Positions 1,083 to 32,000 are shown, counted from the first letter of the stretch. The stretch is 32,000 bases of DNA from an uncultured Spirochaetales bacterium (GCA_964506755.1 CAZDMH010000014.1:2364-34363); one strand, 5' to 3'. Made by a program: numbers and translations. The notes: generated by a model not told the origin, from the letters alone.

Positions 1083-1129
1083 TCACACACTCCTTTCGTG
1101 GGTCTTGCGTCGGATGATCGATCGAATAG

Positions 1130-2094: not shown

Positions 2095-2107
2095 CGGAAA
2101 ATCCTAT

Positions 2108-15187: not shown

Positions 15188-15272
15188 TTCTCTCCTCGTC
15201 TGTGTCGGGACGGCGGGAACCAGAGGAAGTCTCACGGATATGAAAAGCTTGGTCAAGGGGAGCGAAAACTCG

Positions 15273-15302
15273 TTGAATTATGTGACACGTCGGCGGTATC
15301 TT
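15273..15302 (+). promoter_or_regulatory. Candidate promoter of the ABC/LolA-like/barrel operon: TTGAAT - 18 nt - TATCTT
   Basis: TTGAAT at 15273..15278 and TATCTT at 15297..15302, about 60 nt upstream of the ATPase ATG. Confidence 0.25.
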
Positions 15303-15365
15303 AGACGGGGCGATTCAGCGCGCCGGCCCTCATTGCGGTCGGGGACAAAACCTCAGGAGAAGTCA

Positions 15366-16079
15366 ATGGCTATCGTGAAGCTCGAGAATGTGGAAAAGGT
15401 CTATCCCCTCGGCAAAACCGAGGTTCACGCGGTAAAAGGAGTATCGTTCGAGATAGAAAAGGGTGACTTCATTTCAATTGCCGGTCCGTCCGGTTCGGGG
15501 AAGACGACCATCCTCAACATGATCGGATGTATCGACGTGCCCACCTCCGGAAGCGTCGCGATAGACGGTCAGGTAACAAGTGGGTTGAGCGACCGCAAGA
15601 TCACCTCCCTTCGACACGAGGTGATCGGGTTCATTTTCCAGTCCTTCAATCTCATTCCGGTGCTCAACGTCTACGAAAATGTGGAGTTCCCCCTCCTGCT
15701 GGGCAAGGTAAAGGATGCGAAACGCGAGCGAGACGAATGGATCAAGTATCTAATTGAAGAGGTTGGACTCACCCAGTGGAGTCGGCACCGCCCGAACGAG
15801 CTCTCCGGTGGGCAGCGGCAGCGTGTCGCGATTGCACGTGCCTTGGTGACGAAGCCGCAAATCGTGCTGGCCGACGAACCGACGGCAAATCTCGATTCGA
15901 CGACCGGCGAGGCGATCATCGAGTTGATGAAGAAGATCAATCGAGACTTGGAGACGACCTTCATCTTCTCGACTCATGATGCGACGATTGTCGAAATAGC
16001 CGATCACATCATCCGACTCCACGATGGGGTTGTCGCGAGCGAGCAGCGAAGGGAGCGTGAAGATGCCGGTTCTCATTAG
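15366..16079 (+). CDS. ABC transporter ATP-binding protein, MacB/LolD/FtsE-like (237 aa)
   Basis: Walker A GPSGSGKTT, Q-loop region, signature LSGGQRQRVAIARAL, and Walker B IVLADEPT. ATG 15366 has AGGAGA 5 nt upstream. The 67 codons the ORF track adds upstream lie in the divergent intergenic region. Confidence 0.9.
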   Translation: MAIVKLENVEKVYPLGKTEVHAVKGVSFEIEKGDFISIAGPSGSGKTTILNMIGCIDVPTSGSVAIDGQVTSGLSDRKITSLRHEVIGFIFQSFNLIPVLNVYENVEFPLLLGKVKDAKRERDEWIKYLIEEVGLTQWSRHRPNELSGGQRQRVAIARALVTKPQIVLADEPTANLDSTTGEAIIELMKKINRDLETTFIFSTHDATIVEIADHIIRLHDGVVASEQRREREDAGSH

Positions 16080-17538: not shown

Positions 17539-17549
17539 GGAGTTGCGAC

Positions 17550-18860
17550 GTGAAGAATATGATGATAGCACTTCGGAACCTGAACCGGCAGAAGAAACGG
17601 AGCTTCCTCCTTGGCGGCGCTATAGCCTTCGGAATACTCATCATCACCCTCATCAACGGGTTTGCCGGCAGCTTCGTTAACAACGTCAGCGAGAACTTCT
17701 CCCACCTCTTCGGTGGACAGATCTTCATCGACGGGTTCGAAAAGTCGCCCTCGGGGCGACGGATCTCGATCATACGTGATGACAGCGTCTTGACCGACGC
17801 AATCAAGGAATCCGGAATCCCTACAACCTACATTACGAAGGCATCGAGCTTCTCCGGGACGCTGATTTTCCAGAACAACACCGCTGCGCAGCAAGTTGTC
17901 GGAACGGACTGGCAGAAGGCGAGCTATATTCGCAGCAGGCTTACCCTCGTCAAAGGCAGCTTCGCCAACATGGACAACCCTCACGGCATCATAATCAGTG
18001 ACCGTGTCGCAAAGCAGCTGAAAGTCGAGCTCGGCGACACCATTCTCGCCCAGCTTCGAACGGCGACCGGTCAGCTCAACGTGGGTGAGTTCCAGGTTGC
18101 GGCGGTTAGTCATGACCCGGGGCTGTTCGGTTCCATCGCCGCGTACGCGAATCTGCAGTACGTCAACACTCTGCTGAATATTCGCAGCGGAGACTACCAG
18201 ACCCTCGGAATCTTTCTGACGCAGGGAGAGAACATGGATGTCGCTGCCGCCAAGCTTTACTCGGTGCTGAAGGGCAAGGTCCAGATGTTCAAACGTGAGA
18301 CGACGACCGCTTCGACAAATCCCTTCACGGCAATGCAGCGTGCGACGCAGAACGAAACCTGGAGCGGCACGAAATATCGCCTGTATACGCTCAACGATCG
18401 CCTGGCCGAGCTCAAACAGATCGTCGGAACACTCAATACATCAGGCTTGGTCATTCTGCTCATCCTTCTCGTGGTCATCATGATCGGAATAACGAACACC
18501 TTCCGCATGATCATGTACGAGAGGATCCGAGAGATCGGGACTATGAGGGCGCTCGGTATGCAGCGGCCCACGGTCCGAAATCTCTTTCTCCTCGAGGCGC
18601 TGTTCCTCTCGCTTGGTGGGACGGTGCTCGGGCTCATAGCCTCGGCGATCGTCATGACTCTCCTGCACCTGATCAATTTCGGTCTCAATACACCGCTCTT
18701 TCTTCTTCTGAAAGACGGCCATATGACCTTTGATCTGAAGGCGGGACAGTTGATCGGCAATCTCTTGATCGTTGCAGTACTGACAATTCTAGCCGCCTAT
18801 TTCCCAGCGCGCAAAGCTGCGCGGCTGAATCCAGCGGATGCGCTCCGCTCGACTCACTGA
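17550..18860 (+). CDS. FtsX/MacB-type ABC permease 2 (436 aa)
   Basis: N-terminus (V)KNMMIALRNLNRQKKRS followed by a TM segment. FtsX module FRMIMYERIREIGTMRALGMQRPTV. GTG 17550 has AGGGAG 8 nt upstream. The ORF-track 5' extension to 17028 is an Arg-rich out-of-frame overlap with permease 1. Confidence 0.85.
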   Translation: MKNMMIALRNLNRQKKRSFLLGGAIAFGILIITLINGFAGSFVNNVSENFSHLFGGQIFIDGFEKSPSGRRISIIRDDSVLTDAIKESGIPTTYITKASSFSGTLIFQNNTAAQQVVGTDWQKASYIRSRLTLVKGSFANMDNPHGIIISDRVAKQLKVELGDTILAQLRTATGQLNVGEFQVAAVSHDPGLFGSIAAYANLQYVNTLLNIRSGDYQTLGIFLTQGENMDVAAAKLYSVLKGKVQMFKRETTTASTNPFTAMQRATQNETWSGTKYRLYTLNDRLAELKQIVGTLNTSGLVILLILLVVIMIGITNTFRMIMYERIREIGTMRALGMQRPTVRNLFLLEALFLSLGGTVLGLIASAIVMTLLHLINFGLNTPLFLLLKDGHMTFDLKAGQLIGNLLIVAVLTILAAYFPARKAARLNPADALRSTH

Positions 18861-18876
18861 CAACCGGAGGCACATT

Positions 18877-19638
18877 ATGTTTCGCAAGTTCATGAAGACC
18901 ACGCTCCTTACAGCAACCCTGTTGACGGCCGCCTCCTTTGCGGCGTTGGCGCAGCAGCCGGATTTCCACAGGATTCTCCAGCGGGTAGACGAGCTGAACA
19001 ACTTCACGACTGATTTCTCAGCAGTGTTCACGGTCGTATCAGAGAAACCCGGTCAGGACCCGAGCGTTACGAGGGCACAGATCTTTCGTCGGGATCCGAA
19101 GAAGCAGTTCTTGATCGTCATCCTGAAGCCCGACACCCAGAAAGGGCAGGGATATCTCCAAGTGGACAACAACCTGTGGTTCTACGATCCTCAGAGCAGA
19201 CAATTCTCGCACTCCTCTCTCAAGGAAAACTTCCAGAGCTCTGACGCGAAGAACAGCGACTTCAACCAACAATCACTCGCGGAGGACTACACGGTCGCCG
19301 GTTCAAGCGACGGGAAACTCGGGATCTACCCGGTTTACGTTCTCGATCTCAAGGCGAAAAACAACGAGGTCACCTACCCACATGTCAAGCTCTGGGTGCG
19401 GAAGGATCTCGAAATCGTGCTCAAGGCCGAGGATTACAGCCTGTCGGATCGGCTTATGCGAACGGCCTACTATCCAAACTACGCGAAAATCGGGGACAAG
19501 TACTTCCCGTCGCGAATGTTGTTCATCGACAATCTCAATACGGGAAATAAGACCCAGATCACGGTGACGGATCCGTCGATTGCTGCGCTTCCCGACTATC
19601 TGTTTACCAAGGCCTATCTCGAACGAGTCAATCGTTAG
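18877..19638 (+). CDS. LolA-like 'outer membrane lipoprotein-sorting protein' family periplasmic protein (253 aa)
   Basis: GGAGG 6 nt upstream of ATG 18877. Signal peptide MFRKFMKTTLLTATLLTAASFAALA|QQ. The body (…LWFYDPQSRQF…YPVYVLDLKAK…VTYPHVKLWVRKDLEIVLKAEDYS…YFPSRMLFIDNL…) fits my memory of the LolA_like family, which is usually encoded next to FtsX-type ABC genes. Confidence 0.65.
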   Translation: MFRKFMKTTLLTATLLTAASFAALAQQPDFHRILQRVDELNNFTTDFSAVFTVVSEKPGQDPSVTRAQIFRRDPKKQFLIVILKPDTQKGQGYLQVDNNLWFYDPQSRQFSHSSLKENFQSSDAKNSDFNQQSLAEDYTVAGSSDGKLGIYPVYVLDLKAKNNEVTYPHVKLWVRKDLEIVLKAEDYSLSDRLMRTAYYPNYAKIGDKYFPSRMLFIDNLNTGNKTQITVTDPSIAALPDYLFTKAYLERVNR

Positions 19639-19655
19639 GTTGAGGAGGCGCGATC

Positions 19656-21188
19656 ATGAAACGAGCTTACACCGTGCTCTTGCTGCTTCTTCTCGCCGCA
19701 GGCGCATATTCCCAGGATCAATCTACCGGCTCGAATCCTCCTCCGATCCCGACGAATCCCGACTCGCTGTTCGGCTCACCGTCGACCTCCTCTGTCGAAG
19801 GTTCAGGCGGATCCACGGGTAGTGCCTCGAACGGAGGGGGAGACCAGACGGGCCCTTCCACTCAATCTCCGAGCTCTATGTTCCAGGGCGGGATGGTCGA
19901 GGATGTAACGAAGAGCAAGGCCGAGTCCAGTGCTACTGCGGCGACCTCCCTGCTCAAAAGCCAGGGTATCCAGTTCGGAGGAAGCATTGAATCGACCTAC
20001 ACCGCATACGGTTTCTGGCTCGGTGCGTATCCTGATCTGTCGAACCTTGCCAGCGGCTACACCGACCAGATGGTCCCCGTCCTGCAGGGCACGATGTTCT
20101 TCGATGCCCGGCCGGATCAGCATTTTCGGGTCTTCGGAAAAGCCAAGGCGAGCTATCCCTTTCAGGTTTCGGGTGGGACGAGCTCCACAGGCGTGACGAG
20201 CGCGCTTGGAGTGCCGCCCACACAGACAGTGACACCGAACATCAACATCTTCGAGCTCTACTCCGATTTCGACTACAAGAACAAACTCTATTTCCGCGTC
20301 GGCAAACAGGTGGTGAACTGGGGGGTCGGCTACTTCTTCAGCCCGGCGGACATCATCAGCGTTACGCCAATCGACCCCCAGAACCCGACGATCGAGCGTG
20401 AGGGACCAGTCGCCTTCAAGGTCAACATGCCGTTTGCGGAAGTCGACAACCTCTACCTGTACCTCGTTGCGAATCAGAGCTTCGCGACGGGGAGCGCATT
20501 TCACCTCAACGATGTTGCGGTTGCCCCCAAGGCGGAGTTCGTGGTCGGTGACTATGAGTTTGGCCTCGGTGGCTACTACCAACGCAACCAGCGCCCGAAA
20601 GCGATGGTGACTGCCACCGGCTCGATCGGCAAGATCGGCGTATTCGGAGAGGCGGTCGTCAGCAGGGGAGCCGACGGGACCCTTGTGCGACAGGGTGGAG
20701 CGATGGGTTACGAGACCTACACCGACACCACCACCCCCTACTTCCAAGGTACGGTGGGATTCAACTACATGCAGAGCGACTGGCACCTGTCCCTCTACGG
20801 CCAGTACTACTACAACGGACAGGGCTACGCGGACCCCACGCTCGAGAAAGAGGCCTATATCCTCTACGCCGGCCAGGTGGCCGGCACCCTCCCCGTCAGC
20901 CCTCAGCTCAGCCTGCAGGACCTCCAGCTGCCGGCGCGCAACTACGGGGCCGCGGTCGCAAGCTGGAGCAACATCAAGGATTCGAACGTTACGCTGTCGC
21001 TCTTTTGGGAAGGCAACTTCACCGACGGGTCAGGGATCGTGAGCCCGAGCGTGAGCTACAAGCTATTCGATCACGCGAGCCTCACGGCGGCAACACATAT
21101 CGCCTATGGTGGACAGAGCACCCAGTTCATGCAGACCGGGCACATGTCGGTGTCGCTTCAGGCCTCACTCGGTACCGGTGATTTCTAA
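19656..21188 (+). CDS. Predicted outer-membrane beta-barrel protein (510 aa), family unknown
   Basis: GAGGAGG upstream. Signal peptide MKRAYTVLLLLLLAAGAYS|QD. An S/G/P/T-rich low-complexity segment of about 55 aa. Then a long run of alternating aromatic/small-residue strands, a YFRVGKQVVNWGVGYFFSPADI motif, and a C-terminal ...SLGTGDF with terminal Phe. Confidence 0.6.
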   Translation: MKRAYTVLLLLLLAAGAYSQDQSTGSNPPPIPTNPDSLFGSPSTSSVEGSGGSTGSASNGGGDQTGPSTQSPSSMFQGGMVEDVTKSKAESSATAATSLLKSQGIQFGGSIESTYTAYGFWLGAYPDLSNLASGYTDQMVPVLQGTMFFDARPDQHFRVFGKAKASYPFQVSGGTSSTGVTSALGVPPTQTVTPNINIFELYSDFDYKNKLYFRVGKQVVNWGVGYFFSPADIISVTPIDPQNPTIEREGPVAFKVNMPFAEVDNLYLYLVANQSFATGSAFHLNDVAVAPKAEFVVGDYEFGLGGYYQRNQRPKAMVTATGSIGKIGVFGEAVVSRGADGTLVRQGGAMGYETYTDTTTPYFQGTVGFNYMQSDWHLSLYGQYYYNGQGYADPTLEKEAYILYAGQVAGTLPVSPQLSLQDLQLPARNYGAAVASWSNIKDSNVTLSLFWEGNFTDGSGIVSPSVSYKLFDHASLTAATHIAYGGQSTQFMQTGHMSVSLQASLGTGDF

Positions 21189-21222: not shown

Positions 21223-21981
21223 CTACGTCAGAGTGCGAAGGTCGAGAACGGCGCCGCTCTCGAATGAACCGCTGTAGACAAGTGAGAGAATTCGGCGGGC
21301 CGCCTCTGTCGGAGAGCTTAGCTTCCCCTCCTCCTTCAATGTGACGAAACGAGCCTTCGCCGGGAAGAGCGCCTCATCTACCTGGCGGATCCGGTTCTGC
21401 ATGGGAGTATCAAGCACGCCAGGAGCGATCGCGAGAATGCGAACCGGATTCTTCGCCTTCTCCTGCTCGAGGGCGAGGCAGCGCCCGAACATGTCCAGTC
21501 CGGCCTTCGAGGCGCAATATGCGCTCATGCCATCATAGGGATGCTGAGCCGCTCCGGAGGTGATATTCACGATCGTGCGCTGGGCGCCCCAATCTTGCGT
21601 GAAGCGGATGAACATACTCGATAGAAGCATGCACGCAGTCAGGTTCACGGCCACGTGACCTATGATGCCGCGATCATCCAGCTGTCCCACCGGAGCGAGC
21701 GGCCCCTCCACCGCAGCATTGTTGATGAGAACGATTTCCGAATCTTCGTCGTTGTTGAGGTGTGCAAAAACCTCGGAAGCAGCCGCTGCGACTTCGGAGC
21801 TTCGCGAGAGGTCTATACGGTGATCGAAGTACCGTCCGCCCCGATCAAGCACCCTCTCTTCGAGTGCTCGGTTGCCCCTGCGCGAGACGCCGATTACGGT
21901 TGTGTCTGCCTCCCGTGAGGAGAGATCGGCGAAAGCCTCCCCGAGCCCGGACGAGACGCCGGTAATGATAAAAAACCGCAT
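21223..21981 (-). CDS. Short-chain dehydrogenase/reductase (SDR) family oxidoreductase (252 aa)
   Basis: Cofactor-binding motif TGVSSGLG, LINNAAV, and catalytic YCASK. ATG lies 3 nt after the upstream stop. Confidence 0.85.
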   Translation of the reverse strand: MRFFIITGVSSGLGEAFADLSSREADTTVIGVSRRGNRALEERVLDRGGRYFDHRIDLSRSSEVAAAASEVFAHLNNDEDSEIVLINNAAVEGPLAPVGQLDDRGIIGHVAVNLTACMLLSSMFIRFTQDWGAQRTIVNITSGAAQHPYDGMSAYCASKAGLDMFGRCLALEQEKAKNPVRILAIAPGVLDTPMQNRIRQVDEALFPAKARFVTLKEEGKLSSPTEAARRILSLVYSGSFESGAVLDLRTLT

Positions 21982-21984
21982 CAG

Positions 21985-24900
21985 CTATTTCGATTTCGGC
22001 AGCAACTCGAGAATCAGCTCTACCTCTCCCCGGCTGAGCTTCGTTGCCTGAGCGATCTGCGGCACCTTCCAGCCCTGATGCGCAAGCCGTGTAACCATGT
22101 CGCGCGTCGACAAGGAAGGGGCTCCCTTGTCCTTCTTTCCCTGCTTTGCCTCGTCCTTCAGGAGAGAACCGAGGAGCTTGACCTGTTCCTCGGCCTGCTT
22201 GCTGATCTCCTCCAGCCTCGTCTCCGTCCGCGCGAGCCACTCCCGGGCCTGTTGCATCTTCTCGGTTCGTCCCTCGATATCCTTCAGTACGGAACCGAGA
22301 GAAGAAAGCTGCTCCACCGCGCTGTCGGCATCCTTTTTGCTCTTTGCGAGAACCTCGATTCGCTGCGAAAGATCGTCGAGTCGCTTCGGCATTGCCTTTA
22401 CGCCGTTTTCGAGGCTCTGGAGCTGTTGCTCGAGGCTCTCCAACTGCTGGAAGTTCTTGTCCACTCCGTCGGTCGTCGTTTCGAGGATCTTGTCCTTCCC
22501 TTCGAGCCGTTCGTACTTGGCAAATACATCTTTCTCCAGCTCCTCGAGCTTTCGGATTTCCGCTTGAACCGCCTGCAGCTCGTCATGGCTCCCAGTGACC
22601 TGATCGAGCTTCGCATCGACCGACTGGGAGATTGTGATCAGTTTCTTGAAATCGCCTTCCATGACCTCTATGCGATGCTTCTCCGCGAGGAATTTCGCAA
22701 GCTTCGAGGAAACGTCATCTCCGAGCTTCTTGGTCTTCTGAAAGCTCTTCTCGAGATCCTTGAGCTCTTTGGTCTCCGCCTTAACCGCCTCGAGCTGCTC
22801 CTTGAGCTGCTCGATATCCTCAGTCAAAGTCACCTTCAGCGTATCCGCTCGGTTGAAGATCTTCGTTTGCGCAATGAAATCCTTCTGTTTCTTCTCGATC
22901 TCGGCAAGGTTCTGCGAGAGTAGCTTGTAGCTTTCTTCGATCTTCGAGGCCAGCCGTTTCTGGGATTCCTCCATACGGTCGTAGCTCTCCTGGGACGAGG
23001 AGCGCAAATCTCTGAGACGCTGATCGGCCTCGCCCGCGAGCTCGTGCGTCTTCGCCTGGAGATCTTTCATGAACAGATCGTACTGCTGCCGGAACTCCGA
23101 GATGGCGTCCGCGCTCCTCTGTTTCAAATCGGCTTCCAGCCGGTCGACGTCTGCGCCGACGCGCGCAAGATCTTCCCTTAGCCTCGTTCGCTCCTCTTCG
23201 CTGCCCGTTATGAGCTCCCCTTTTTCGTGCTCGAACTCGACTCGGAGCTCCTCGAGGTCCTTGCCTATCCTGTCCTCGGCCTCCTTGACCTGGGCAAGGA
23301 TCTTTTCCTGCCATGAGGCAACATCACTCCTCGTGGCGTCGAGCATTGCCTGGATGTCGCTCTTCCGAGCCTCGAGCTGCTCGGTGATTCCACCGAACTC
23401 CTGCTCAACCGTGCGTTCGTACTGAGATACCCGTTCGCCGACCCGCTCCGAGTGGCCCTCTAACTCCTGCGAAATGAGATTCATAGCCGCCTGCCGCGCT
23501 TCGGCTATTCGTTCGCGCATTTCAGTGCTGAAGCGGTCGAGAGTTTCCGTTCTGCTCTGGTCGGCCTCCGACGCTATTTCGTCCATTCGGCTACCGATAC
23601 TCGACTGCCACTCTTCGAGCCGCTCGTTGAGGCCGTCGGTACGCACCTTGAGGTCGGCGAAGAAATCATCCTCGAAAACCTGGAGCTTCTCCGAGACATT
23701 CTCGTAGGCCCGGGACTTCAAGTCGGTAAGACCGTGCTCAACCTCTTCAACCGAAGCGTGGATAACGGCGAGCTCCTCCTCGACTCTTTGGCGTTCGGCT
23801 TCACGACGCTCGGCAAGCTGCTTCGTCCATTCGTCGAAATCCGTTTCGATCTTTATCCTTACCTTTTCCATGATCGACCGAAGGTTCCGGTCGAGCTCTT
23901 CGATATCGATGTTGACCGCCTCGATCTTTCCCATTCGATATGCTACGTCGGCCTCGTAGTCGGCGACCTTGGTTTCCACTTCGGTAAGCCGACCCGTCAT
24001 ATCTTCTTCGAATCTTCCGACCTGACTCGAGAAGCGCTCGATGACGTCGTCGGCTAGCCCGTTGTTTCGCTCATCTATTTCTCCGAGCGAAGTCCGGAAG
24101 GAGCTCTCCTTCTCCTCAATGAGCTCTTCGACATTGTTCAACCGATCGCGAAGAGAGGATTCGAGGTCGCGAACGGTGATGTTCATCTCGCTCACGAAAG
24201 CATTGAGTTCGTTTCTCTGCTCCTCTTTGCGCTTTGCGGTTTCGGAAGCGAGGGTAGTCAGGTTGTTGTCGACATCCGCAGAAAAAACGCCATAGCGCTC
24301 CGAGAACTCCCCTTCCTTGTCTTCGATTAGCTTCTGAATTTCCGCCTGCCAAACCGTAATCTGAGATCGGCTCTCGCCAAACATCTGGTCGAGCTCCTTG
24401 CGCGACTCTTCGAGACTCGCCTTCGTTTCGTTGAACGAGCTCGTGAGCAGCTTCTGGACCTCCCGTGCCCTACTCTCAATGTGACTTTTCAGCTGCACGA
24501 AGACGTCATCTTCGAGATTGCGCGCCTTCTCGGCAACATCGCGGATGTTCTCCTGGTAGCTTTGCTCTATGGTGTTCACCCGCTCCTGGAACGCGTCGAG
24601 TTTCTCGATGATGGTTCGTTCTGTTTCCACCACCTGTTCTTTCAACTCGGAATGGAGCTTTGCGATGCGATCCGTTACGCCTTTGCCGTTTTCCGTCGCT
24701 TTGTCGAGCAGCAAATTGAGGTTCGTCTCAAACTGGCCCCGGAGCTCATCGCCGGTGCCCTGCGCGTTCTTGATGAATCCCTGAAACACCTGTTCCAGGT
24801 TGCGTACTGTCTCCGCCTCCATGCCGTCGCGGCGCGCCTCGAGGCCGGCGAGGTACTCGGAGAAGCGTTCGACTGACTTCTCCGCCTTCTCGAGCTCCTT

Positions 24901-25452
24901 CGCTATGGCCGATGCGTTGTCCTTGCTGACCTTCATGACGTTGCCCGACACAACCTTAAGCTCGCGTTCGTTGATCTTGGCGAACTCGTCTTTCAGCTCA
25001 GGGATGCTCTTCTCAATTCCTTGCATCCTGACAACGGCATCTTTGATGCGCTTCCCGACCGCATCGACGAACTCCGATTCCTGATGAAGGCGCTTGAGGT
25101 TCTCTTCTACCCGTCCGGTCATCTGGACGAGATCGGCCAAAGCCTGGTCATATTCGTTCATTCGAGTGCTGAGCTTCTCGAATCCCTTGGCTCGATCGCC
25201 AATGCCGTCCTCCACATTCGAAATGTGCTTGACGATCTCTTTTGCAGTCCGCTGATGAACGTCGAGCTCTATCGAGAGGTTCTTGAGCTCCGTCGTTTTC
25301 GATTCGACGAACTCACTCAGCTGATCTCTGACCTTGTCGGAGAAGCGTTTCACCTTGTCGAGTGATCTGTTGTTGCGGTCCAGCTGCCGATAAACGACGA
25401 GAACGAGTATCACTATTAATAGAGTGATAATGTTTCCTATCGTCAGAATCAT
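21985..25452 (-). CDS. 1155-aa membrane-anchored coiled-coil protein with a C-terminal helix-turn-helix-like tail
   Basis: GGGAGAG upstream of the ATG. N-terminal TM ILTIGNIITLLIVILVLVV is followed by YRQLDRNNRSLDKVKR (positive-inside rule, so the body is cytoplasmic). About 1080 aa are E/K/R/L/Q-rich, Pro-poor sequence. The last ~40 aa read TRDMVTRLAHQGWKVPQIAQATKLSRGEVELILELL. Confidence 0.8.
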   Translation of the reverse strand: MILTIGNIITLLIVILVLVVYRQLDRNNRSLDKVKRFSDKVRDQLSEFVESKTTELKNLSIELDVHQRTAKEIVKHISNVEDGIGDRAKGFEKLSTRMNEYDQALADLVQMTGRVEENLKRLHQESEFVDAVGKRIKDAVVRMQGIEKSIPELKDEFAKINERELKVVSGNVMKVSKDNASAIAKELEKAEKSVERFSEYLAGLEARRDGMEAETVRNLEQVFQGFIKNAQGTGDELRGQFETNLNLLLDKATENGKGVTDRIAKLHSELKEQVVETERTIIEKLDAFQERVNTIEQSYQENIRDVAEKARNLEDDVFVQLKSHIESRAREVQKLLTSSFNETKASLEESRKELDQMFGESRSQITVWQAEIQKLIEDKEGEFSERYGVFSADVDNNLTTLASETAKRKEEQRNELNAFVSEMNITVRDLESSLRDRLNNVEELIEEKESSFRTSLGEIDERNNGLADDVIERFSSQVGRFEEDMTGRLTEVETKVADYEADVAYRMGKIEAVNIDIEELDRNLRSIMEKVRIKIETDFDEWTKQLAERREAERQRVEEELAVIHASVEEVEHGLTDLKSRAYENVSEKLQVFEDDFFADLKVRTDGLNERLEEWQSSIGSRMDEIASEADQSRTETLDRFSTEMRERIAEARQAAMNLISQELEGHSERVGERVSQYERTVEQEFGGITEQLEARKSDIQAMLDATRSDVASWQEKILAQVKEAEDRIGKDLEELRVEFEHEKGELITGSEEERTRLREDLARVGADVDRLEADLKQRSADAISEFRQQYDLFMKDLQAKTHELAGEADQRLRDLRSSSQESYDRMEESQKRLASKIEESYKLLSQNLAEIEKKQKDFIAQTKIFNRADTLKVTLTEDIEQLKEQLEAVKAETKELKDLEKSFQKTKKLGDDVSSKLAKFLAEKHRIEVMEGDFKKLITISQSVDAKLDQVTGSHDELQAVQAEIRKLEELEKDVFAKYERLEGKDKILETTTDGVDKNFQQLESLEQQLQSLENGVKAMPKRLDDLSQRIEVLAKSKKDADSAVEQLSSLGSVLKDIEGRTEKMQQAREWLARTETRLEEISKQAEEQVKLLGSLLKDEAKQGKKDKGAPSLSTRDMVTRLAHQGWKVPQIAQATKLSRGEVELILELLPKSK

Positions 25453-25467
25453 GGTCTCTCCCAGTTT

Positions 25468-26133
25468 TCAAGAGGTGTGGATATACTTCATGATCGAGTC
25501 GCGCAGATCTCCGTACGAGGAGAAGGTGAGATCGGCCTTCGAATCTATCACCTTCCTGCTCGATAGATGCGCAGACTTCATGCCAACCTCTTTCGCACCA
25601 AGTATATCATACTTGTAGTGATTTCCAACATACATAATCTTGTCGGCAGGGAGCCCGAGGCGCTTCGAGAGCTCGAGGAACGGTTCCGGATTCGGCTTGA
25701 GATACCCGGTTTCTTCGGAGGAAAAGGCACAATCAACGAGGTCGTCAAGTCCGAGATACTTGAGCTTGCGTTCCACCGGAAAGTCGGAGATGACAGCAAT
25801 CCGGAGCCCGCCGCTGTGTAGCCCTTCGAGACAATTGCGCACGCCGCTGTAGGCAGAAATCCCTTGGAAGGTTTCCTCCCAGCGACCGTAGATGTTCCGC
25901 TCGATGAGCTCAGCCGCGTGGTTCGTGGTTACGCGAAGCGAGACTGCGAGTAGCTCCGCCTGAAGGCCGCGGAAGTTGTGTATTGGCCGGATCATCCTGA
26001 TGGTTCTACGGATTTTTCCGAAGTGGCGCACGAGCCGCGCGTGGGTAAGGAAGAACGGGATGGATCGAAGATACATCTTGTGATTTGGGTACAGGGTACC
26101 GTCGAGGTCGAAGGCTACCGCCTGTATGTCCAT
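25468..26133 (-). CDS. HAD superfamily hydrolase (221 aa)
   Basis: Motif I AFDLDGTLY (DxDxT), motif II VISDF, a conserved Lys (YLKPNPEPF), and motif IV-like VGNHYKYDILGA. Confidence 0.8.
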   Translation of the reverse strand: MDIQAVAFDLDGTLYPNHKMYLRSIPFFLTHARLVRHFGKIRRTIRMIRPIHNFRGLQAELLAVSLRVTTNHAAELIERNIYGRWEETFQGISAYSGVRNCLEGLHSGGLRIAVISDFPVERKLKYLGLDDLVDCAFSSEETGYLKPNPEPFLELSKRLGLPADKIMYVGNHYKYDILGAKEVGMKSAHLSSRKVIDSKADLTFSSYGDLRDSIMKYIHTS

Positions 26134-26134
26134 T

Positions 26135-27289
26135 CTACCTCGCAGTATCTGCTTGTATTACGTACTGCAGTGTTCCTTGTGCCACCTGGTCGCCGCCAAC
26201 CGGCTGAAAGCGCCACTTTTCCATCCAAGCCTCCAGCGCGCTGTTCAACTCAGGATAAACCAACGACGGCGTGATATTCAAGACATTGACGTTTCCAGAG
26301 GGTGAGACGCTGAACGCGATTTTCAGCTCGATAGTTGGAGGAATCTCATTCAGATACTGCTCCGGAATCTTGAACGGTTCCGGCTGCTGCATCACACGTC
26401 GTTGCGCCGAATCGCTCTTCCATTGGATGTTTGGTCCAGTCGAGGAGGGCGCGGATTGCGAACCGACGCTTCCTGATCCGCCTGTGGAGCCGCCTGCCGC
26501 GGCACCCGATTGACCTCCGGCGGCGCCGGACGCTCCGGATGTCGACGGCGCGCCTTGACTACTCGACGAGCTGCCCGGAGAGGGGCTCGAGGAACCGGCC
26601 GCCGCCGCAAGATCTGAGTTGAAGATGCTGGTGGGGGCCTGAGTCTTGGGACCGTAGAAGGTCTGCGACTGACCCTGGTCCGTTTCAGTGCCGGCTCCGC
26701 CGGCCCCTTGTGGCGGTGACGAGCTCTGCTGTGCTCCTTGCGGATAGTTGACGCCGGGCCTGGCCGACTGCGGGCCGGTTACGGGACCGCTGCGCTGTGA
26801 TGTCGGGCCGGTGACGCCGGTCAAGTTCGTTGACGTTCCGCCACCCGTGCTTGTCATGCTCTGCGGGATATTGGGGCCTCGAGGAATCGCCGTAGCCTGT
26901 GACGGGACCGGCGAGGGTGCCGCAGAAGGCTGTTGCCGGGAGGCGACCGAGGGGCTCGCCGGCACCTTCGTCGCGGGCTGATCGGACGGGGAGACCACAC
27001 TATCGGGGGAAGAGACACTGGTCTGCGCGGCTGACTGAGATTCTTCGGTCGACGCCGTCGGCTGCCGGGCAGATGCTTTCTCGGGCGAGGCCGCTTTTGT
27101 CTGGGTGGCGGTGAGCTCGCTGAGAGAATTGCCTTCCAGGTTGACGTATACCGACACCGGCGGGGAGATACTCCGGAAGGGGGCCGCCGGAGGCCAATGC
27201 AGCCCCATCAACAGGACGAAAATAACGGCGTAACCGACGAGCACGATGCCTGTGCTGAGGGCAAGCCGCTCTCGGTCCTTCAAATCCAT
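26135..27289 (-). CDS. TonB/TolA-like energy-transducer protein (384 aa) with a very long uncharged low-complexity linker
   Basis: GGAGAG upstream of the ATG. N-terminal TM LALSTGIVLVGYAVIFVLLMGL. A linker of about 225 aa rich in S/P/G/A/Q/T. C-terminal TonB_C-like domain IELKIAFSVSPSGNVNVLNITPS..YPELNSALEAWMEKWRFQP. Located directly after exbB-exbD. Confidence 0.7.
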   Translation of the reverse strand: MDLKDRERLALSTGIVLVGYAVIFVLLMGLHWPPAAPFRSISPPVSVYVNLEGNSLSELTATQTKAASPEKASARQPTASTEESQSAAQTSVSSPDSVVSPSDQPATKVPASPSVASRQQPSAAPSPVPSQATAIPRGPNIPQSMTSTGGGTSTNLTGVTGPTSQRSGPVTGPQSARPGVNYPQGAQQSSSPPQGAGGAGTETDQGQSQTFYGPKTQAPTSIFNSDLAAAAGSSSPSPGSSSSSQGAPSTSGASGAAGGQSGAAAGGSTGGSGSVGSQSAPSSTGPNIQWKSDSAQRRVMQQPEPFKIPEQYLNEIPPTIELKIAFSVSPSGNVNVLNITPSLVYPELNSALEAWMEKWRFQPVGGDQVAQGTLQYVIQADTAR

Positions 27290-27304
27290 CGACTCTCCGC
27301 TCTC

Positions 27305-27721
27305 CTATTGACTCGGCCCGACCGGGAGCAACTTCAAGTTGACTCCCGTGAATCCGTTCTTCCTTAGATCGTCGAGCACCTTGATCATCAAGTCATAAGA
27401 TATACTCTTGTCTCCCTCCAAGACAACTGAATGGATCGATTCACGCTCCTTCGCGGTGAGCTGCGACAAACGCGTGTCCAAGCTCTGAAGGTCGTATTTC
27501 TCCTTGTTGAGGTAGATCTCGCTCGGTGAGACCACCGTCACGACGAGTCGGGTCATGACGACAGGCTCGGCGGTTGAGGATTGCGGAAGTAGCAGGCGAA
27601 TGCCCGGTGTGACGACGAAGGTGCTCGTCACCATGAAGAAGAACACGAGTTGGAATGCGATATCGATCATGGGAATGAGGTTGATCTGATTGATCGGCGC
27701 GAGACGTCTTCGAAACTGCAT
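27305..27721 (-). CDS. exbD: ExbD/TolR family biopolymer transport protein (138 aa)
   Basis: INLIPMIDIAFQLVFFFMV TM signature and typical size. The start abuts the exbB stop with no gap. Confidence 0.85.
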   Translation of the reverse strand: MQFRRRLAPINQINLIPMIDIAFQLVFFFMVTSTFVVTPGIRLLLPQSSTAEPVVMTRLVVTVVSPSEIYLNKEKYDLQSLDTRLSQLTAKERESIHSVVLEGDKSISYDLMIKVLDDLRKNGFTGVNLKLLPVGPSQ

Positions 27722-28330
27722 CTACCTTCCCTTCACCAGAAGCAGAACCATCTCGCCTACTCGGTTTTCGAGTCTGATGATGATATGATTCACCTTCGAG
27801 ACGAGATGATTGTAGAATGCGATCGAAGGTATCGCAACGATAATCCCAGCGGCTGTGGTAAGCAACGCTACGGCGATCCCCCGGCCCAGCACGCTTGGAT
27901 CGTTTACGACGCCGCTTGATCCGAGTACCCCGAACGCCTGTATGGTACCTACGACGGTACCAAGGAGGCCCAGCAGGGTCGCGACATTGGCGATTGTTCC
28001 GAGAGTCGGGAGGAAGCGCTCGAGGCGAGGAATCTCGAGGTTTGCCGCGGCCAAGATCGCCTCTTTGATTGCCGATTCGGAATGCTCGTGGTGCTCGATT
28101 CCGACCCGCATGAGGTTCGTAATAGGAGCCGGGCTGCTTTCACATATACTGAGCGCTTCGTCGAAATGACCTTTTTCCAGCGTTGCCCTCAACCGACTAA
28201 TCATCTGATCTTCATCGACTCGGATTCGGCGGAAAAAGATCAAGCGCTCGATAATGATCACGGCGGCAATGAGAGACAGGAGGATGATGACTATCATCAC
28301 GATGCCGCCCTTCTGAATGAGAAACACCAT
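27722..28330 (-). CDS. exbB: MotA/TolQ/ExbB family proton channel (202 aa)
   Basis: Three TM segments and the LGTIANVATLLGLLGTVVGTIQAF signature. GAGGAG lies 8 nt upstream of the ATG. Confidence 0.85.
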   Translation of the reverse strand: MVFLIQKGGIVMIVIILLSLIAAVIIIERLIFFRRIRVDEDQMISRLRATLEKGHFDEALSICESSPAPITNLMRVGIEHHEHSESAIKEAILAAANLEIPRLERFLPTLGTIANVATLLGLLGTVVGTIQAFGVLGSSGVVNDPSVLGRGIAVALLTTAAGIIVAIPSIAFYNHLVSKVNHIIIRLENRVGEMVLLLVKGR

Positions 28331-28373
28331 TCTAGTTACTCCTCATAAGGATTTCTCGCCATAGTTGGACCGT

Positions 28374-30017
28374 CTACAGAGATATTCGAGTGGTCACGGT
28401 GACCCGGAATCCGGGCTCGTAGTAGTAGTTCCATGTCTTTCGGCCGGAGCTGAGCGGAGACAGCAGGTCGTTCATGTTCAAATGGAAGCTCACGCCGCTC
28501 GATACACGAAGGTATCCCGAAAGGGATATATTGGGCATCTCTGCGGCGAACGGCGAAATGGTGTCCAGGTTCATCGTTCCTGACAACGCGCCGCCGTATC
28601 GACCGTTTGTGTCACTCAACTCTGCATCGACGTTGAAGCTGCTCAAAGGTACGAATGGTCCCGGATTCAGGAAGTTGCCTTTCCAGCCGAGCTTCAACGA
28701 GAACGGACCGGTGGGATCCCACGAGAGCTCCGCCGACGGACCGAGCACCGTCGCACGGCCCTGCGTGAAGGAAAACAATCCGGTACCGGCCTGCGCCGAA
28801 CCGGGGAGTACGGCTGCGCTTGCGTCGGAGAAATCCACGCCGCTCTGAAGCCCGAGCGCAGGACCGAAATGCCAGCTCGCGCTCGCTCCTCCATACCACT
28901 CGAGCGAAGGCACCAGGTTCGTGCTCTGATCGAGGAACGGATACTCTGTCCAGAGGTCGAAGTAGCTCTGACGATCCACTCGATAGCCTCCATAGAGGCG
29001 GTACGTCAGAAGGTCCTTGTACACCCCGTCGAGCTCGAGGGAGAACGGGATCGCCCACCGAATGGTCTTTTCCCATTCCGCTCCGACGCTCCCTTTGAGG
29101 GTGAGGGCCAGGGGAAGCTCGGCACTCATGGAGAGCGTGCCGCCTGCAGTCTGTCCAACTGACTGCACCGGTCCGGTAGTTTGCGTAGCGCTATAGTACC
29201 CGGTGAGCGTGCCGTTCACCTTCGAGAAATTCAGGCCGAGATTCAGCGCCGGGTTTACCGCCAACTCCTGTGCGTTCAGGGCATTTGTCGGAGAAGGACC
29301 GGCGAGACTCATATCTCCACTTGTCGCACCGATGCTCACGCCGAAGGTGAATGGTGAGGCGCCGGCGTACTCCGCTTTCGCCGCCCCGGAAATGAATCGA
29401 TGGGTGACCGAGCTGTAGGTGTTCGCGTTTCCCTGGAGCCCGTCTTCAGTCTCACGGTAATAGTCGTGGGTATCGAAGTTGAACACGTTCTTCGCGGAAT
29501 AGGTCAGGCTGCCGACGAGCGCATCCTTCCGATTGAAGAAACCGGCACCGGCCGGTTGGAAGGTGCTCGTCGACGAAGGTGCCAGATAGCCATCGAGTCG
29601 TTCGTGCGAGAATTCGATGTTGAACCTCGGGTCGCTTCCGAGCTTGTAGAGGGTAATGTCCCCGATGATGTGGTTCATCGATCCGGCACCGATCAAGCCG
29701 TCACTGAAGAAACTCGCCTGAGACTGGGAAGTGGTCTGTACCGAAGTCCCGTTCGGACCCTGAGTCGGGACTGGAACATCGTAGGCGGCGCTTCCGAGCT
29801 TGATGTTCTGTACCTGGGGCAGAGCGACGTCGATTTGCGGCAATGAAGGGGCCTGTTCCTCAGGCAGCGGAGTGTCGATCTTCTCCTGAGTAACGTCTTG
29901 CACTTTGAGCAGGATCGGCGGAAGGACGATTTCGGGCTCGGACGGCTCCACCTGCTGCGCCGGGAGCGCTGCCGCGGCGACCAGCGCTACGAATAGCCCA
30001 TAGACAACCTCTTTCAC
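28374..30017 (-). CDS. Secreted protein of unknown family (547 aa), predicted outer-membrane beta-barrel
   Basis: GTG start at 30017 forms a GTGA overlap with the TPR gene stop. Signal peptide (V)KEVVYGLFVALVAAAALPA|QQ. A P/E/Q-rich N-terminal extension is followed by more than 450 aa rich in G/S/T/Y/F/L with an alternating pattern, ending ...GFRVTVTTRISL. I recognise no family motif. Confidence 0.55.
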   Translation of the reverse strand: MKEVVYGLFVALVAAAALPAQQVEPSEPEIVLPPILLKVQDVTQEKIDTPLPEEQAPSLPQIDVALPQVQNIKLGSAAYDVPVPTQGPNGTSVQTTSQSQASFFSDGLIGAGSMNHIIGDITLYKLGSDPRFNIEFSHERLDGYLAPSSTSTFQPAGAGFFNRKDALVGSLTYSAKNVFNFDTHDYYRETEDGLQGNANTYSSVTHRFISGAAKAEYAGASPFTFGVSIGATSGDMSLAGPSPTNALNAQELAVNPALNLGLNFSKVNGTLTGYYSATQTTGPVQSVGQTAGGTLSMSAELPLALTLKGSVGAEWEKTIRWAIPFSLELDGVYKDLLTYRLYGGYRVDRQSYFDLWTEYPFLDQSTNLVPSLEWYGGASASWHFGPALGLQSGVDFSDASAAVLPGSAQAGTGLFSFTQGRATVLGPSAELSWDPTGPFSLKLGWKGNFLNPGPFVPLSSFNVDAELSDTNGRYGGALSGTMNLDTISPFAAEMPNISLSGYLRVSSGVSFHLNMNDLLSPLSSGRKTWNYYYEPGFRVTVTTRISL

Positions 30018-32000
30018 TGAGCGCCCTCCAGCAGTTTCTTCGCCTCCACCGCCCATTCGGTGTTGGGGAAGTTGTTCTGGATCTTGTCGACCATCGCCCT
30101 GACGTCTGAGAGATTACCTGAAAGCTTCGCCATCTCGGCCGCCCGGTAGAGAGAGGCGGCGGTCAAGTCTCTGTTCGCAGGGTCGAGTGTGGCCGCGGCA
30201 AGAAAATCGTTCGCCGCCTTTCTGAGATCCCCGTTGCGATACGCGTACTCGCCGAGGAGATACTGAGCCTGGGCCGCGTTCGTCGGGTCTTGGCTCTCCT
30301 TTTCGATGACCTGATGAAGGAGAGGAACCGCTTGATCCTGTTTCGCTCCGGACTTGTAAATGTAGATCCGCGCCAGGTCGACCATTGCCGTGCGCCCCGC
30401 CTTCGTATCGGCGCCTTTGTCCCTACCGATCGTAACGAGCAATTCGGCCTCTTTCTCCGATTGCCCGGTGAGGATGTAGCGTATCTTCTGCGCCTTCTCT
30501 GCGGCCCCTACGGCGGCCGCTTCCTTAGGATAGACCGCTTCGAGCTCAGTATAGAGCTTCAAGGCCTGGCGCAAGTCTCCGCGCTGCGAATAGACCTCGG
30601 CCGTACGCTGCATCGCATCGGCTCGGTAGGAGCTGTCCTTGTGGTCATCAATCAACTTCTGCCAGAGCAGGACAGCCCCGAAATCCTCGCCTGCCGCCAG
30701 CGATGCACGTCCGCCCCAGTACAGCGCGGCGGCTACCCGGTCACCGTTGGGGAATTGAAGACGATAGTCTGTGAAAGCGGCCTTGGCCTCGTCGTATTTC
30801 TTGTTCTCGTACAGCAACTGGGCTCGCTTGTAAAGTGCATCTGCAACAAGGGGGCTGTTGGGATACTCGGCCGCGAGCTTCTTGTAGGCCGCTGCGGAGT
30901 CTGAAATCTTCTTCTCAGCTGCGAGCACACCTGCGTACTCGAACATCGCGTCATCGGCGTAGTCGGACTTCGGGTTGTCGACGAAGATGTTCTGAAAGGC
31001 CACAGCGGCATCCTGCAACTTCCCTCCGGTCTCCAGGCTCTTTGCGTACATGTAGAGTCCCTTTTGCCGTTCACCAGCATTCTGGCCGTTCGCATACTGA
31101 AGGAAGTAGCGGCCCGCTCTGTCGTAATTCTTGAGAAGGTAGGCACACCATCCTGCGAGGTAGAGCGTGCGACTCTTTAGGTCACTCGACGCATTGCCGT
31201 GGATGATCTCGTCAAACAGCGACGCCGCCGTACTGTAGTCCGCCAGGCGGTATGAGGCCCAGCCCTGGTAGTACAGAGCATATGGCACGATGATCGAGAG
31301 GCCGGCCGAGTCCAGAGTCTTCGTTGTCAGAGGCCGAAGCAAGTCGAGCGCATCCGAGTACTTCTTATCGGAAAGCAGCGCAAGACCACGCATGTAGCGA
31401 ACGATGAGCTCGGCGCGGACGTCCTTCGTTGCGAGGTTGGGGTTGTCCTTCAACACCTTCTGACTCTCATCGAGCACCGATGTGTAGTCCTGGCTTTCGA
31501 AGTAGAGCTTCGTGAGGTCAACCTGCGCCGCCACATCCTTGCCGACGAGTGGAAGGTATTCTTTCAATGTGGAAATGGCCTTGTCGACCTGTCCAAGACG
31601 GATATACGCAAGCGATTTGAGTCTCAGCATCTTCGCCGCATATCCGCCGGCCGTCGCAGCCGAAAACTGCGCGTCTATTGCCGCGACCGTCTGTTGATAG
31701 TCACCAAGCTCGTAGATTGCATACGCCTCGAGATAGCCCGCCTCGCTTCGGTAGGGCGAATTCGGGTAGCTGTCAATTAGCTTCGCGAAGGAGCTTCGGG
31801 CATCTTCATAGTCCCCGCCCTGCAGCTCGAAGCCGGCGAGGCGAAACCGGAGCAGGTCCTGGTATTCCGAAGCATTGGGCAGCGCCACCTTCAGGATCGC
31901 GACCGCCTGAGAGAGTCTCTTGGTTTTGGCATAGATCTCGGCCAGATAGAGCGGAACCAAGGGGCTGACTTTTCCTTGCGAGCGTAGACCCCATATGCGC
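30014..32000 (-). CDS. Large TPR-repeat protein with YbgF(CpoB)/BamD-type repeats. 5' end lies outside the window (about 660 aa visible).
   Basis: The reading frame stays open to position 32000; the ORF-track 'M' at 31960 is a TTG inside the frame. At least 8 repeats carry the xP(N/K)(S/T/G)xxxx(A/E)A hallmark (SYPNSPYRSEA, EYPNSPLVADA, QFPNGDRVAAA, NFPNTEWAVEA, DNPKSDYADDA, ...). Confidence 0.8.
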   Translation of the reverse strand, partial: RIWGLRSQGKVSPLVPLYLAEIYAKTKRLSQAVAILKVALPNASEYQDLLRFRLAGFELQGGDYEDARSSFAKLIDSYPNSPYRSEAGYLEAYAIYELGDYQQTVAAIDAQFSAATAGGYAAKMLRLKSLAYIRLGQVDKAISTLKEYLPLVGKDVAAQVDLTKLYFESQDYTSVLDESQKVLKDNPNLATKDVRAELIVRYMRGLALLSDKKYSDALDLLRPLTTKTLDSAGLSIIVPYALYYQGWASYRLADYSTAASLFDEIIHGNASSDLKSRTLYLAGWCAYLLKNYDRAGRYFLQYANGQNAGERQKGLYMYAKSLETGGKLQDAAVAFQNIFVDNPKSDYADDAMFEYAGVLAAEKKISDSAAAYKKLAAEYPNSPLVADALYKRAQLLYENKKYDEAKAAFTDYRLQFPNGDRVAAALYWGGRASLAAGEDFGAVLLWQKLIDDHKDSSYRADAMQRTAEVYSQRGDLRQALKLYTELEAVYPKEAAAVGAAEKAQKIRYILTGQSEKEAELLVTIGRDKGADTKAGRTAMVDLARIYIYKSGAKQDQAVPLLHQVIEKESQDPTNAAQAQYLLGEYAYRNGDLRKAANDFLAAATLDPANRDLTAASLYRAAEMAKLSGNLSDVRAMVDKIQNNFPNTEWAVEAKKLLEGAQ

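Follow-up and report, generated by a model that had tools for sequence, protein, structure and literature searches.

A predicted plug-less barrel beside its own TonB-like motor: a candidate Ton/Tol-class module of spirochaetes

Introduction

Motors of the Ton/Tol class are known to power plugged outer-membrane receptors (Ton), the TolB-Pal pair (Tol), gliding complexes and a few other systems. ExbB5ExbD2 is a motor driven by the proton motive force (PMF), and the C-terminal domain of TonB (TonB_C) binds TonB boxes by strand addition. The Agl-Glt/Nfs systems of Myxococcus combine a TolQR-type motor with a TonB-like protein, tetratricopeptide-repeat (TPR) proteins, outer-membrane barrels and the cytoplasmic coiled-coil protein AglZ. 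To our knowledge, the trans-envelope energetics of free-living spirochaetes are essentially unstudied. Here we analyzed a stretch of 32,000 nucleotides of DNA from an uncultured Spirochaetales bacterium (GCA_964506755.1, CAZDMH010000014.1:2364-34363), referred to below as the window, whose minus strand encodes, in the order of reading, a TPR protein, a secreted outer-membrane barrel protein, ExbB-, ExbD- and TonB-like proteins, a HAD phosphatase, a giant coiled-coil protein of the SpiroCoCo family (CoCo) and an SDR oxidoreductase. With somewhat more confidence than doubt, we propose that the five genes TPR-barrel-exbB-exbD-tonB form a self-contained, Spirochaetota-restricted force-transduction module of the Ton/Tol class, with the barrel as its outer-membrane target.

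Two recent reports describe systems that bear on this proposal. Plug-less SusC-like 'Type S' transporters of Bacteroides are glycan importers encoded in polysaccharide utilization loci and are lidless channels for small substrates (10.1101/2025.11.13.688124). A 2025 survey of TolA/TonB evolution (PMC12204202) covers other non-canonical clusters of motor and TPR genes, and does not mention spirochaetes in its main text. We found no literature on the five-gene cassette described here.

Results

The preliminary description of this locus had treated the 547-amino-acid (aa) secreted protein as an unknown barrel, a label that no longer holds for its fold. An AlphaFold2 model built on an alignment of 150 sequences reached a local confidence score (pLDDT) of 89.4 and a predicted TM-score (pTM) of 0.80, with the barrel part above 90. 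The protein consists of a signal peptide (residues 1-20), a tail (residues 21-100) and a beta-barrel (residues 103-546) of 22-23 strands as read from the DSSP listing, not from coordinates. In a Foldseek search of the PDB, all 50 of the 50 best matches were TonB-dependent transporters (TBDTs), with E from 1e-13 to 3e-17 and TMq of 0.51-0.64, and BtuB matched at E 2.8e-17 and TMq 0.62-0.64. An earlier AlphaFold2 run with 15 sequences (pLDDT 69.9, residues 10-141 uncertain), now superseded by the 150-sequence run, gave the same Foldseek ranking. By sequence, the barrel had no match in Pfam or NCBIfam, its family profile found no PDB chain at E <= 10, and neither Plug (PF07715) nor TonB_dep_Rec (PF00593) matched any of 15 family members at E <= 1. 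The former orphan barrel is thus modeled as a plug-less barrel of TBDT fold with a conserved tail of linear motifs.

The tail is acidic, Pro-rich and conserved across the 150 family members, and it is disordered in the model: residues 22-100 have a pLDDT of about 50 and no secondary structure, even with 150 sequences. An E-P-x-I-V-L-P box lies 5-13 residues past the predicted signal cleavage (I30 conserved in 74%, L32 in 84% and P33 in 99% of the 150 sequences), and further hydrophobic-x-L-P motifs follow in the same alignment (P52 97%, P67 92%, P84 80%). From its place and character, EPxIVLP may be a TonB box. The barrel family, which has neither a Pfam nor an NCBIfam model, is now defined and comprises 478 clusters at 50% identity, nearly all of 520-570 aa; a homologue search with the 150-sequence profile returned the same 16 proteins again, with no taxonomic gain.

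The three genes after the barrel gene encode a motor and its transducer. The ExbB-like protein (PF01618, 108 bits) is closest, among solved sequences, to TolQ (E 5.7e-15), followed by ExbB (6e-9); it scored below all NCBIfam equivalog cut-offs, including that for TolQ (TIGR02796, 91.8 bits against 221). The start of the ExbD-like gene abuts the ExbB stop with a 0-nt gap. Its product matched PF02472 at 96 bits, carries its transmembrane (TM) aspartate as D20 in IPMIDIAF, and has ExbD as its nearest solved sequence (E 5.4e-12), followed by TolR (1.2e-6), with 70.9 bits in the TolR model TIGR02801 (cut-off 127.3). All the motor subunits are below the NCBIfam equivalog cut-offs, those for ExbB and ExbD included.

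The transducer has an N-terminal TM anchor, a low-complexity linker of about 265 aa (76% S/P/G/A/Q/T) and a C-terminal TonB_C domain. We infer that a linker of this length is suited to a wide, flagellum-containing periplasm. When a profile of 21 orthologous C-termini from related loci was compared with the PDB, TonB matched at E 2.7e-10 and TolA at only 0.2, and Pfam TonB_C (PF03544) was matched by 17 of the 21 orthologues. By these profiles the C-terminal domain is assigned to the TonB type, not the TolA type. In one related contig (L088:5859-7225) the TonB-like gene was called as two open reading frames (ORFs) of 373 and 92 aa, with TonB_C in the 92-aa piece, and its sister contig (L089) has a single call of 328 aa; the split is possibly a frameshift or an assembly error.

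The TPR frame has no stop up to base 32000, so the TPR gene is cut by the edge of the window. The full gene and the genes upstream of it were taken from a metagenomic contig (L001) that agrees with the window at all but 5 of 5449 nt. On this contig the TPR protein is 978 aa long, carries a signal peptide but lacks a lipobox, and would start at the window-equivalent position 32950. Its gene overlaps by 4 nt the barrel gene, which starts with GTG (an alternative ATG lies at 30056). The protein scored 224 bits with TIGR02795 (cut-off 90), a value summed over six repeated stretches of the 978 aa, and 73 bits with the CpoB model NF008068 (cut-off 383); CpoB was its nearest solved sequence (E 1.2e-6). 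TPR_Slam (19.8 bits) and PorW/SprE (64 bits) were both below cut-off. The system is a mosaic within the Ton/Tol class, in which a Ton-like transducer and barrel are joined to a Tol-like ExbB and TPR partner.

The five-gene block is conserved in related genomes. A genome scan with the C-terminal domain of CoCo, one genome per species, gave 80 Spirochaetia loci with 10-kb flanks, which were annotated by phmmer and by HMMs made from the window proteins; 54 of the 80 had enough upstream sequence to be informative. The order (P427)-TPR-barrel-ExbB-ExbD-TonB-like-HAD-CoCo, in which P427 is a secreted protein of 427 aa, was found in 41 of these 54 loci. PtsI-Der-P427-HAD-CoCo, with P427 abutting HAD, was found in 11 (two of them without HAD; OY759746.1 and OY764342.2 are examples of such block-less genomes), and no motor, TPR or barrel gene lies within 20 kb in these 11 loci. 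In 2 of the 54 loci, unrelated genes stand upstream of CoCo. A rough neighbor-joining tree of the CoCo C-terminal domain spreads the 11 block-less genomes over three or more clades, each nested among block-bearing ones, which suggests repeated loss or relocation of the block.

The same order occurs in a divergent, GC-rich lineage (L088), in which the TPR protein is 33%, the barrel 22%, ExbB 61%, ExbD 47% and HAD 44% identical to the window proteins; for scale, the DnaK of this lineage shares 78% identity with that of the window, and Borrelia DnaK 71%. Because the seven-gene order is kept in so divergent a lineage, the order is ancient. Downstream of HAD, L088 has a 'mini' CoCo of 338 aa and then grpE-dnaK-dnaJ. 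These data speak to the view, held in the preliminary description, that the window's eight genes are one unit: the order from TPR to CoCo is indeed conserved, in 41 of the 54 loci and in L088, but SDR occurs in no relative and the five-gene block is separable.

A metagenome scan seeded with Treponema-type CoCo sequences gave another set of 80 loci, 31 of them informative. ExbB, ExbD, the TPR protein and the barrel were found in none of these 80 Treponema-like loci (0/80). HAD-CoCo was present in 55 of the 80, and P427-HAD-CoCo in 21 of the 31. Treponema denticola TDE2508 was considered as a lead and dropped, as its paper links it to no TPR or ExbB genes.

The cultured Thiospirochaeta perfilievii (L173; CP035807.1, 537110-560409) has the order PtsI-Der-P427-ExbB-ExbD-TonB-like-HAD-CoCo-GrpE-DnaK-DnaJ. 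Its neighborhood is syntenic with genes of the window, namely a Germane-domain gene, ptsI, der, grpE-dnaK-dnaJ, rlmB and purDNMF, and in the lineage of the window CoCo no longer adjoins the dnaK operon, owing to a rearrangement. A contig of Borreliella burgdorferi (L087, JAJNEV010000042.1) carries a CoCo homologue, then pheS, pheT, trxB and an rlmB-dnaJ-dnaK-grpE cluster, with the upstream side out of view; this gene order extends the linkage of CoCo to the dnaK region to Borrelia. From the gene order pheS-pheT-trxB-dnaK, this CoCo homologue is probably BB0512.

Across these loci the TPR and barrel genes never occur without the motor, the motor occurs once without these two, and P427, HAD and CoCo widely persist in the absence of both the motor and the TPR-barrel pair. 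Four modules make up the locus: P427; TPR and barrel; ExbB-ExbD-TonB; and HAD and CoCo.

ORF calling on the window gave eight consecutive ORFs on the minus strand from 21223 to 32000 (Table 1). Their coordinates and their junctions, recomputed from the TPR gene to SDR as -4, 43, 0, 15, 1, 15 and 3 nt, are identical to those in the preliminary description, and our domain searches confirmed adh_short (for SDR), HAD, ExbD, MotA_ExbB and TPR/YbgF repeats. Upstream on L001, on the same strand and with gaps of 15-25 nt, are the genes for P427, the GTPase Der and PtsI, and a divergent gene marks the 5' boundary of the array. With these three added, the array has 11 genes, ptsI-der-P427-TPR-barrel-exbB-exbD-tonB-HAD-SpiroCoCo-SDR, of which the window holds the 3' two-thirds. 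TolB, Pal/OmpA and Plug domains were absent from the array proteins and from the 5.7 kb upstream in Pfam and NCBIfam searches, the rest of the genome being out of view. The locus had been described from the start as having no TolB, no Pal and no plug-domain receptor, and the domain searches agree; a check of whether tolB or pal adjoins the window upstream found neither, with ptsI, der and P427 in their place. As to the receptor, the description is literally right, though the barrel is a receptor-like element.

Table 1. Genes of the array in the window and on contig L001
Feature	Coordinates	Strand	Basis
SDR oxidoreductase, 252 aa, benzil/sepiapterin-reductase type	21223-21981	-	PF00106
SpiroCoCo-family coiled-coil protein, 1155 aa	21985-25452	-	NF047514, NF047515
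Cytoplasmic HAD-IA phosphatase, 221 aa	25468-26133	-	PF00702/PF13419, intact DLDGT motif
TonB-like transducer, 384 aa	26135-27289	-	orthologue C-terminal profile, TonB_C
ExbD/TolR-like subunit, 138 aa	27305-27721	-	PF02472, TM Asp
ExbB/TolQ-like proton-channel subunit, 202 aa	27722-28330	-	PF01618
Secreted outer-membrane barrel protein, 547 aa	28374-30017	-	AlphaFold2 and Foldseek fold comparison
TPR protein, C-terminal 661 codons within the window	30014-32000	-	TPR/YbgF repeats
P427, secreted, 427 aa	L001:3473-4756 (window-equivalent ~32966-34249)	-	

Consensus scans for internal signals found 6 promoter-like sites, against 2.9 +/- 1.3 in shuffled sequences, and 10 terminator-like sites, against 9.9; the sole terminator-like site on the minus strand is weak and lies within the barrel gene. 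The scans show nothing meaningful inside the array, and its co-transcription is plausible. The hairpin that had been reported after the last gene is present 3' of the SDR stop (GCUGCCGAG-GGCA-CUCGGCAAC), but it has no U tract and the folding of the region is unexceptional, with a z-score of only -1.6. Neither Rfam nor tRNA searches of the window and L001 gave a hit, so there is no riboswitch lead. Recent horizontal insertion of the locus was rejected because the GC content is uniform (0.53-0.62) and the components keep their synteny in L088 despite deep divergence. For annotation, it should be kept in mind that tight co-directional packing in the housekeeping arrays of spirochaetes (with der, ptsI and dnaK as neighbors) does not by itself define a machine.

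The 1155-aa CoCo protein scored 240.4 bits with the N-domain model NF047514 (cut-off 75) and 345.7 bits with the C-domain model NF047515 (cut-off 125). It has a single N-terminal TM helix, a coiled coil of about 1000 aa and a C-terminal module of about 35 aa that resembles a helix-turn-helix (HTH). Next to the membrane is the almost invariant motif YRQLDRNNRSLDKVKRF, with the family form YRQLDRNNRSLxKVKR(Y/F), and the C-terminal module reads QGWxVxEIAxATKLSRGEVELILE. The C-terminus matched DUF2802/DUF6115 in 13 of 13 members and HTH_23 in 11 of 13, with a weak match to a Pax HTH (E 0.02). We found no paper on the SpiroCoCo family or on BB0512; since SpiroCoCo is an annotation class in NCBIfam only (N-domain of the LA_3659 family), membership gives no function. 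Conservation of the TM helix and the juxtamembrane motif is the same whether or not a lineage has the motor, which argues against a motor-specific interface. CoCo ranges in length from 338 aa (L088:8001-9017) to ORFs of more than 2300 aa in termite-gut Treponema-like contigs (L104:4622-11629). Its terminal domains are kept while the coiled coil grows and shrinks, and the 338-aa 'mini' form has only the TM/N-domain and the HTH-like C-domain.

HAD adjoins the CoCo gene in motor-bearing, motor-less and Treponema-like loci, and is a conserved neighbor of CoCo that is not specific to the motor block. The SDR scored 247.8 bits with NF005381, '(S)-benzoin forming benzil reductase', just under the cut-off of 258. 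No SDR homologue was found in any of the 80 related loci, and SDR is therefore a local, lineage-specific addition. The P427 gene directly precedes the block or, in loci that lack it, HAD-CoCo, and this holds also for the Treponema-like lineages and T. perfilievii. The protein has no relative in Pfam, NCBIfam or the PDB, and its invariant residues are a GFNCSGFxKWxxDG motif and a histidine, H372; this GFNCSGF...H pattern alone suggests a candidate Cys/His hydrolase.

Two other groups of genes in the window were noted. The plus-strand genes of the interval 15165-21188, which converge on SDR, specify an ABC ATPase, a pair of permeases of the FtsX/MacB-like kind, a LolA-like protein and one of 510 aa that belongs to no family. 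From its signal peptide, S/G-rich linker and C-terminal ...GTGDF, the 510-aa protein is probably another outer-membrane barrel, and the pair of 510-aa and LolA-like genes lies downstream of CoCo in several related genomes too. On the minus strand at 138-3148, four co-directional genes for a PSP1-domain protein, a DUF327 protein, a bactofilin and an M23 peptidase are possibly a cell-shape or cell-wall cluster.

Discussion

In the module that we propose, the ExbB/TolQ-like and ExbD/TolR-like proteins would form a proton motor in the inner membrane that drives the TonB-like transducer, whose disordered linker of about 265 residues would span the flagellum-containing periplasm. The outer-membrane endpoint would be the barrel of TBDT fold, in which about 80 disordered periplasmic residues stand where a plug would be. 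TonB_C would bind the EPxIVLP box at the N-terminus through beta-strand addition, as it does with a TonB box, and a PMF-driven pull on the tail would gate or remodel the barrel. The CpoB-like TPR protein of 978 aa, translationally coupled to the barrel, would be a periplasmic scaffold or adaptor for the other hydrophobic-x-LP motifs or for cargo. The physiological role of the module may be gated transport or envelope maintenance. The best-supported setting is that the module is embedded in an older housekeeping backbone, der-P427-...-HAD-SpiroCoCo-grpE/dnaK, in which HAD and SpiroCoCo are persistent neighbors that function without the module and are not proven parts of it.

Several observations weigh against the proposed module. 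The C-terminal domain of the window transducer, taken alone, scored 18.6-20.2 bits, under the Pfam and NCBIfam cut-offs (PF03544 18.6 against 24.6). The S-x3-H motif is broken in the window transducer by a Tyr for the TM His (LVGYAVIF; residues 12-24), and its closest relatives (L008, L025, L046, L054, L057) have Tyr or Phe there; most orthologues keep the motif, for example L011, L012, L015, L047, L056 and L088. Reading EPxIVLP as a TonB box draws on position and sequence character only. At its locus, T. perfilievii has the motor trio beside P427 and HAD-CoCo without TPR and barrel, so the transducer may have another target, or the barrel may be elsewhere in that genome. Finally, the motor trio lies between P427 and HAD-CoCo in three deep lineages, which could reflect a real coupling.

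Among the alternatives, the one that survives best, though we consider it unlikely, is a functional analogue of Tol-Pal that serves to tether and constrict the outer membrane, in coordination with the cell wall, at division, with the TPR protein and/or P427 as the real targets, the barrel as a mere anchor, and no transport. The YbgF/CpoB-type repeats of the TPR protein and its closeness to CpoB agree with such a role, as do the TolQ-leaning ExbB-like subunit, the single, conserved housekeeping locus that has long been inherited vertically (22% identity for the barrel against 78% for DnaK), the suggestion of a Cys/His hydrolase in P427, and the place of the motor beside P427 in T. perfilievii, where TPR and barrel are missing. 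However, the transducer C-terminal domain is of TonB rather than TolA type, the ExbD-like subunit is nearer to ExbD than to TolR, TolB, Pal and any OmpA-like domain for peptidoglycan binding are missing from the array, neither a family nor a PDB relative could be detected for P427, and the block is dispensable in many Spirochaetia. Because a TBDT-type barrel goes together with a TonB-type transducer, the system is closer to Ton than to a Pal/TolB replacement. The preliminary description of a non-canonical, PMF-driven envelope system without TolB, Pal or a plugged receptor therefore stands in part, and its idea of an unknown barrel in the place of Pal/TolB gives way to that of a system closer to Ton, with an unusual, dedicated receptor.

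We regard as slightly less likely the view that all of the at least eight genes encode one machine, in which the motor is tied both to SpiroCoCo in the cytoplasm and to TPR and barrel in the periplasm, and so links the outer membrane to the nucleoid or cytoskeleton. The tight co-directional packing fits this view, and the motor is directly upstream of HAD-CoCo in the 41 loci, L088 and T. perfilievii, where CoCo identities are only 24-34%; the single TM helix of CoCo with its strongly conserved juxtamembrane motif and the HTH-like C-terminus also speak for it. On the other side, CoCo, HAD and P427 persist without nearby ExbB/ExbD in 11 genomes and in 80 of 80 Treponema-like contigs, the TM and juxtamembrane motif of CoCo are just as conserved in motor-less lineages, and the length of CoCo, from 338 aa up to over 2000 aa, varies irrespective of the block. 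SDR is not conserved, and der and ptsI in the array, with the dnaK operon abutting in relatives, make up a typical housekeeping synteny block, not a dedicated operon. A further reading, in which the motor trio is the ancient partner of P427, HAD and SpiroCoCo, and with barrel and TPR makes a spirochaete-specific replacement of Tol-Pal that physically couples the outer membrane, across the flagellum-containing periplasm, to the membrane-anchored cytoplasmic coiled-coil/HTH protein and so brings the constriction or integrity of the envelope into step with the nucleoid or cytoskeleton, seems to us equally doubtful.

It is improbable that TPR and barrel form an export conduit for a polymer or lipoprotein in the style of AlgK/AlgE, BcsC, PgaA or Slam, powered or gated by a Ton-like motor. 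An exporter would be in keeping with a barrel whose translation is coupled to that of a large periplasmic TPR protein, and the sub-cut-off matches to TPR_Slam and PorW/SprE point weakly the same way, but the top 50 fold matches are all TBDTs, with AlgE, BcsC and PgaA absent, and neither the array nor its relatives contain a synthase, glycosyltransferase or OPX gene. A TBDT-fold barrel adjoining exbB-exbD-tonB might suggest a plain TonB-dependent nutrient importer with a plug that has diverged beyond recognition; this is very improbable, since a TBDT plug has about 130-150 aa and the N-terminal region here is Pro-rich and, with only about 80 residues, too short for one, since this region stays near a pLDDT of 50 without secondary structure in a model whose barrel exceeds 90, and since the Plug, TonB_dep_Rec and PDB profile searches were all negative.

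If confirmed, the proposed five-gene module would show a new way in which a PMF motor and an outer-membrane barrel can be coupled, and would give a candidate system for envelope maintenance or gated transport in free-living spirochaetes. Marispirochaeta and T. perfilievii offer a culturable test bed for the unstudied SpiroCoCo family, which also occurs in Borrelia and Treponema-like lineages.

Compared with known systems, the 1155-aa protein is a SpiroCoCo member, well above the cut-offs of both NF047514 and NF047515. Unlike the AlgK/AlgE, BcsC and PgaA exporters, whose 16-18-strand fold is not among the top 50 matches of the barrel, the locus has no adjacent synthase. The Agl-Glt/Nfs systems of Myxococcus have a like mix of components and are the closest known precedent for the idea of a link from the outer membrane to the cytoplasm, but SpiroCoCo is unrelated to AglZ, the components here are far fewer, and the CoCo link is not obligatory; no Glt/Agl orthologue was found, with GltC scoring 19.4 bits (NF033756, cut-off 450) and no other Glt family matched.

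The 'Type S' transporters of Bacteroides are alike in having a TBDT-type barrel without a plug (10.1101/2025.11.13.688124). They belong to another phylum and have no detectable sequence relation to the barrel described here, which has a disordered tail, an ExbBD-TonB motor of its own and a giant TPR partner.

Tol-Pal shares with this locus the TolQ-leaning motor subunit, a periplasmic protein of CpoB/YbgF-type TPR repeats alongside and the housekeeping context. It differs in that TolB, Pal and YbgC are absent here, the transducer C-terminal domain matches TonB and matches TolA only at E 0.2, CpoB has about a quarter of the length of the TPR protein, and the outer-membrane component is an integral barrel. 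The module lies outside Tol-Pal on account of TolA, TolB and Pal.

With the Ton system and its TBDTs (BtuB, FepA, PfeA), the module shares MotA_ExbB and ExbD domains with the TM Asp, a transducer built as TM, linker and TonB_C, a barrel that superposes on TBDT barrels, and a conserved hydrophobic box at the mature N-terminus, the position of a TonB box. Unlike the TBDTs, the barrel has a conserved, disordered, acidic and Pro-rich tail of 80 residues instead of a plug and no sequence similarity to PF00593 or PF07715. Unlike the Ton system, the block includes a 978-aa TPR protein, its ExbB is nearer to TolQ, its subunits are below the equivalog cut-offs and the TM His is replaced by Tyr; and while many receptors share one TonB in the Ton system, here one dedicated barrel is encoded with the motor. 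The module would work like a Ton system and stands apart from the TBDTs in its plug and its sequence family. What is new here is a conserved, vertically inherited module in which a TBDT barrel carries a conserved disordered tail for a plug and always has a giant CpoB-like TPR protein as its partner.

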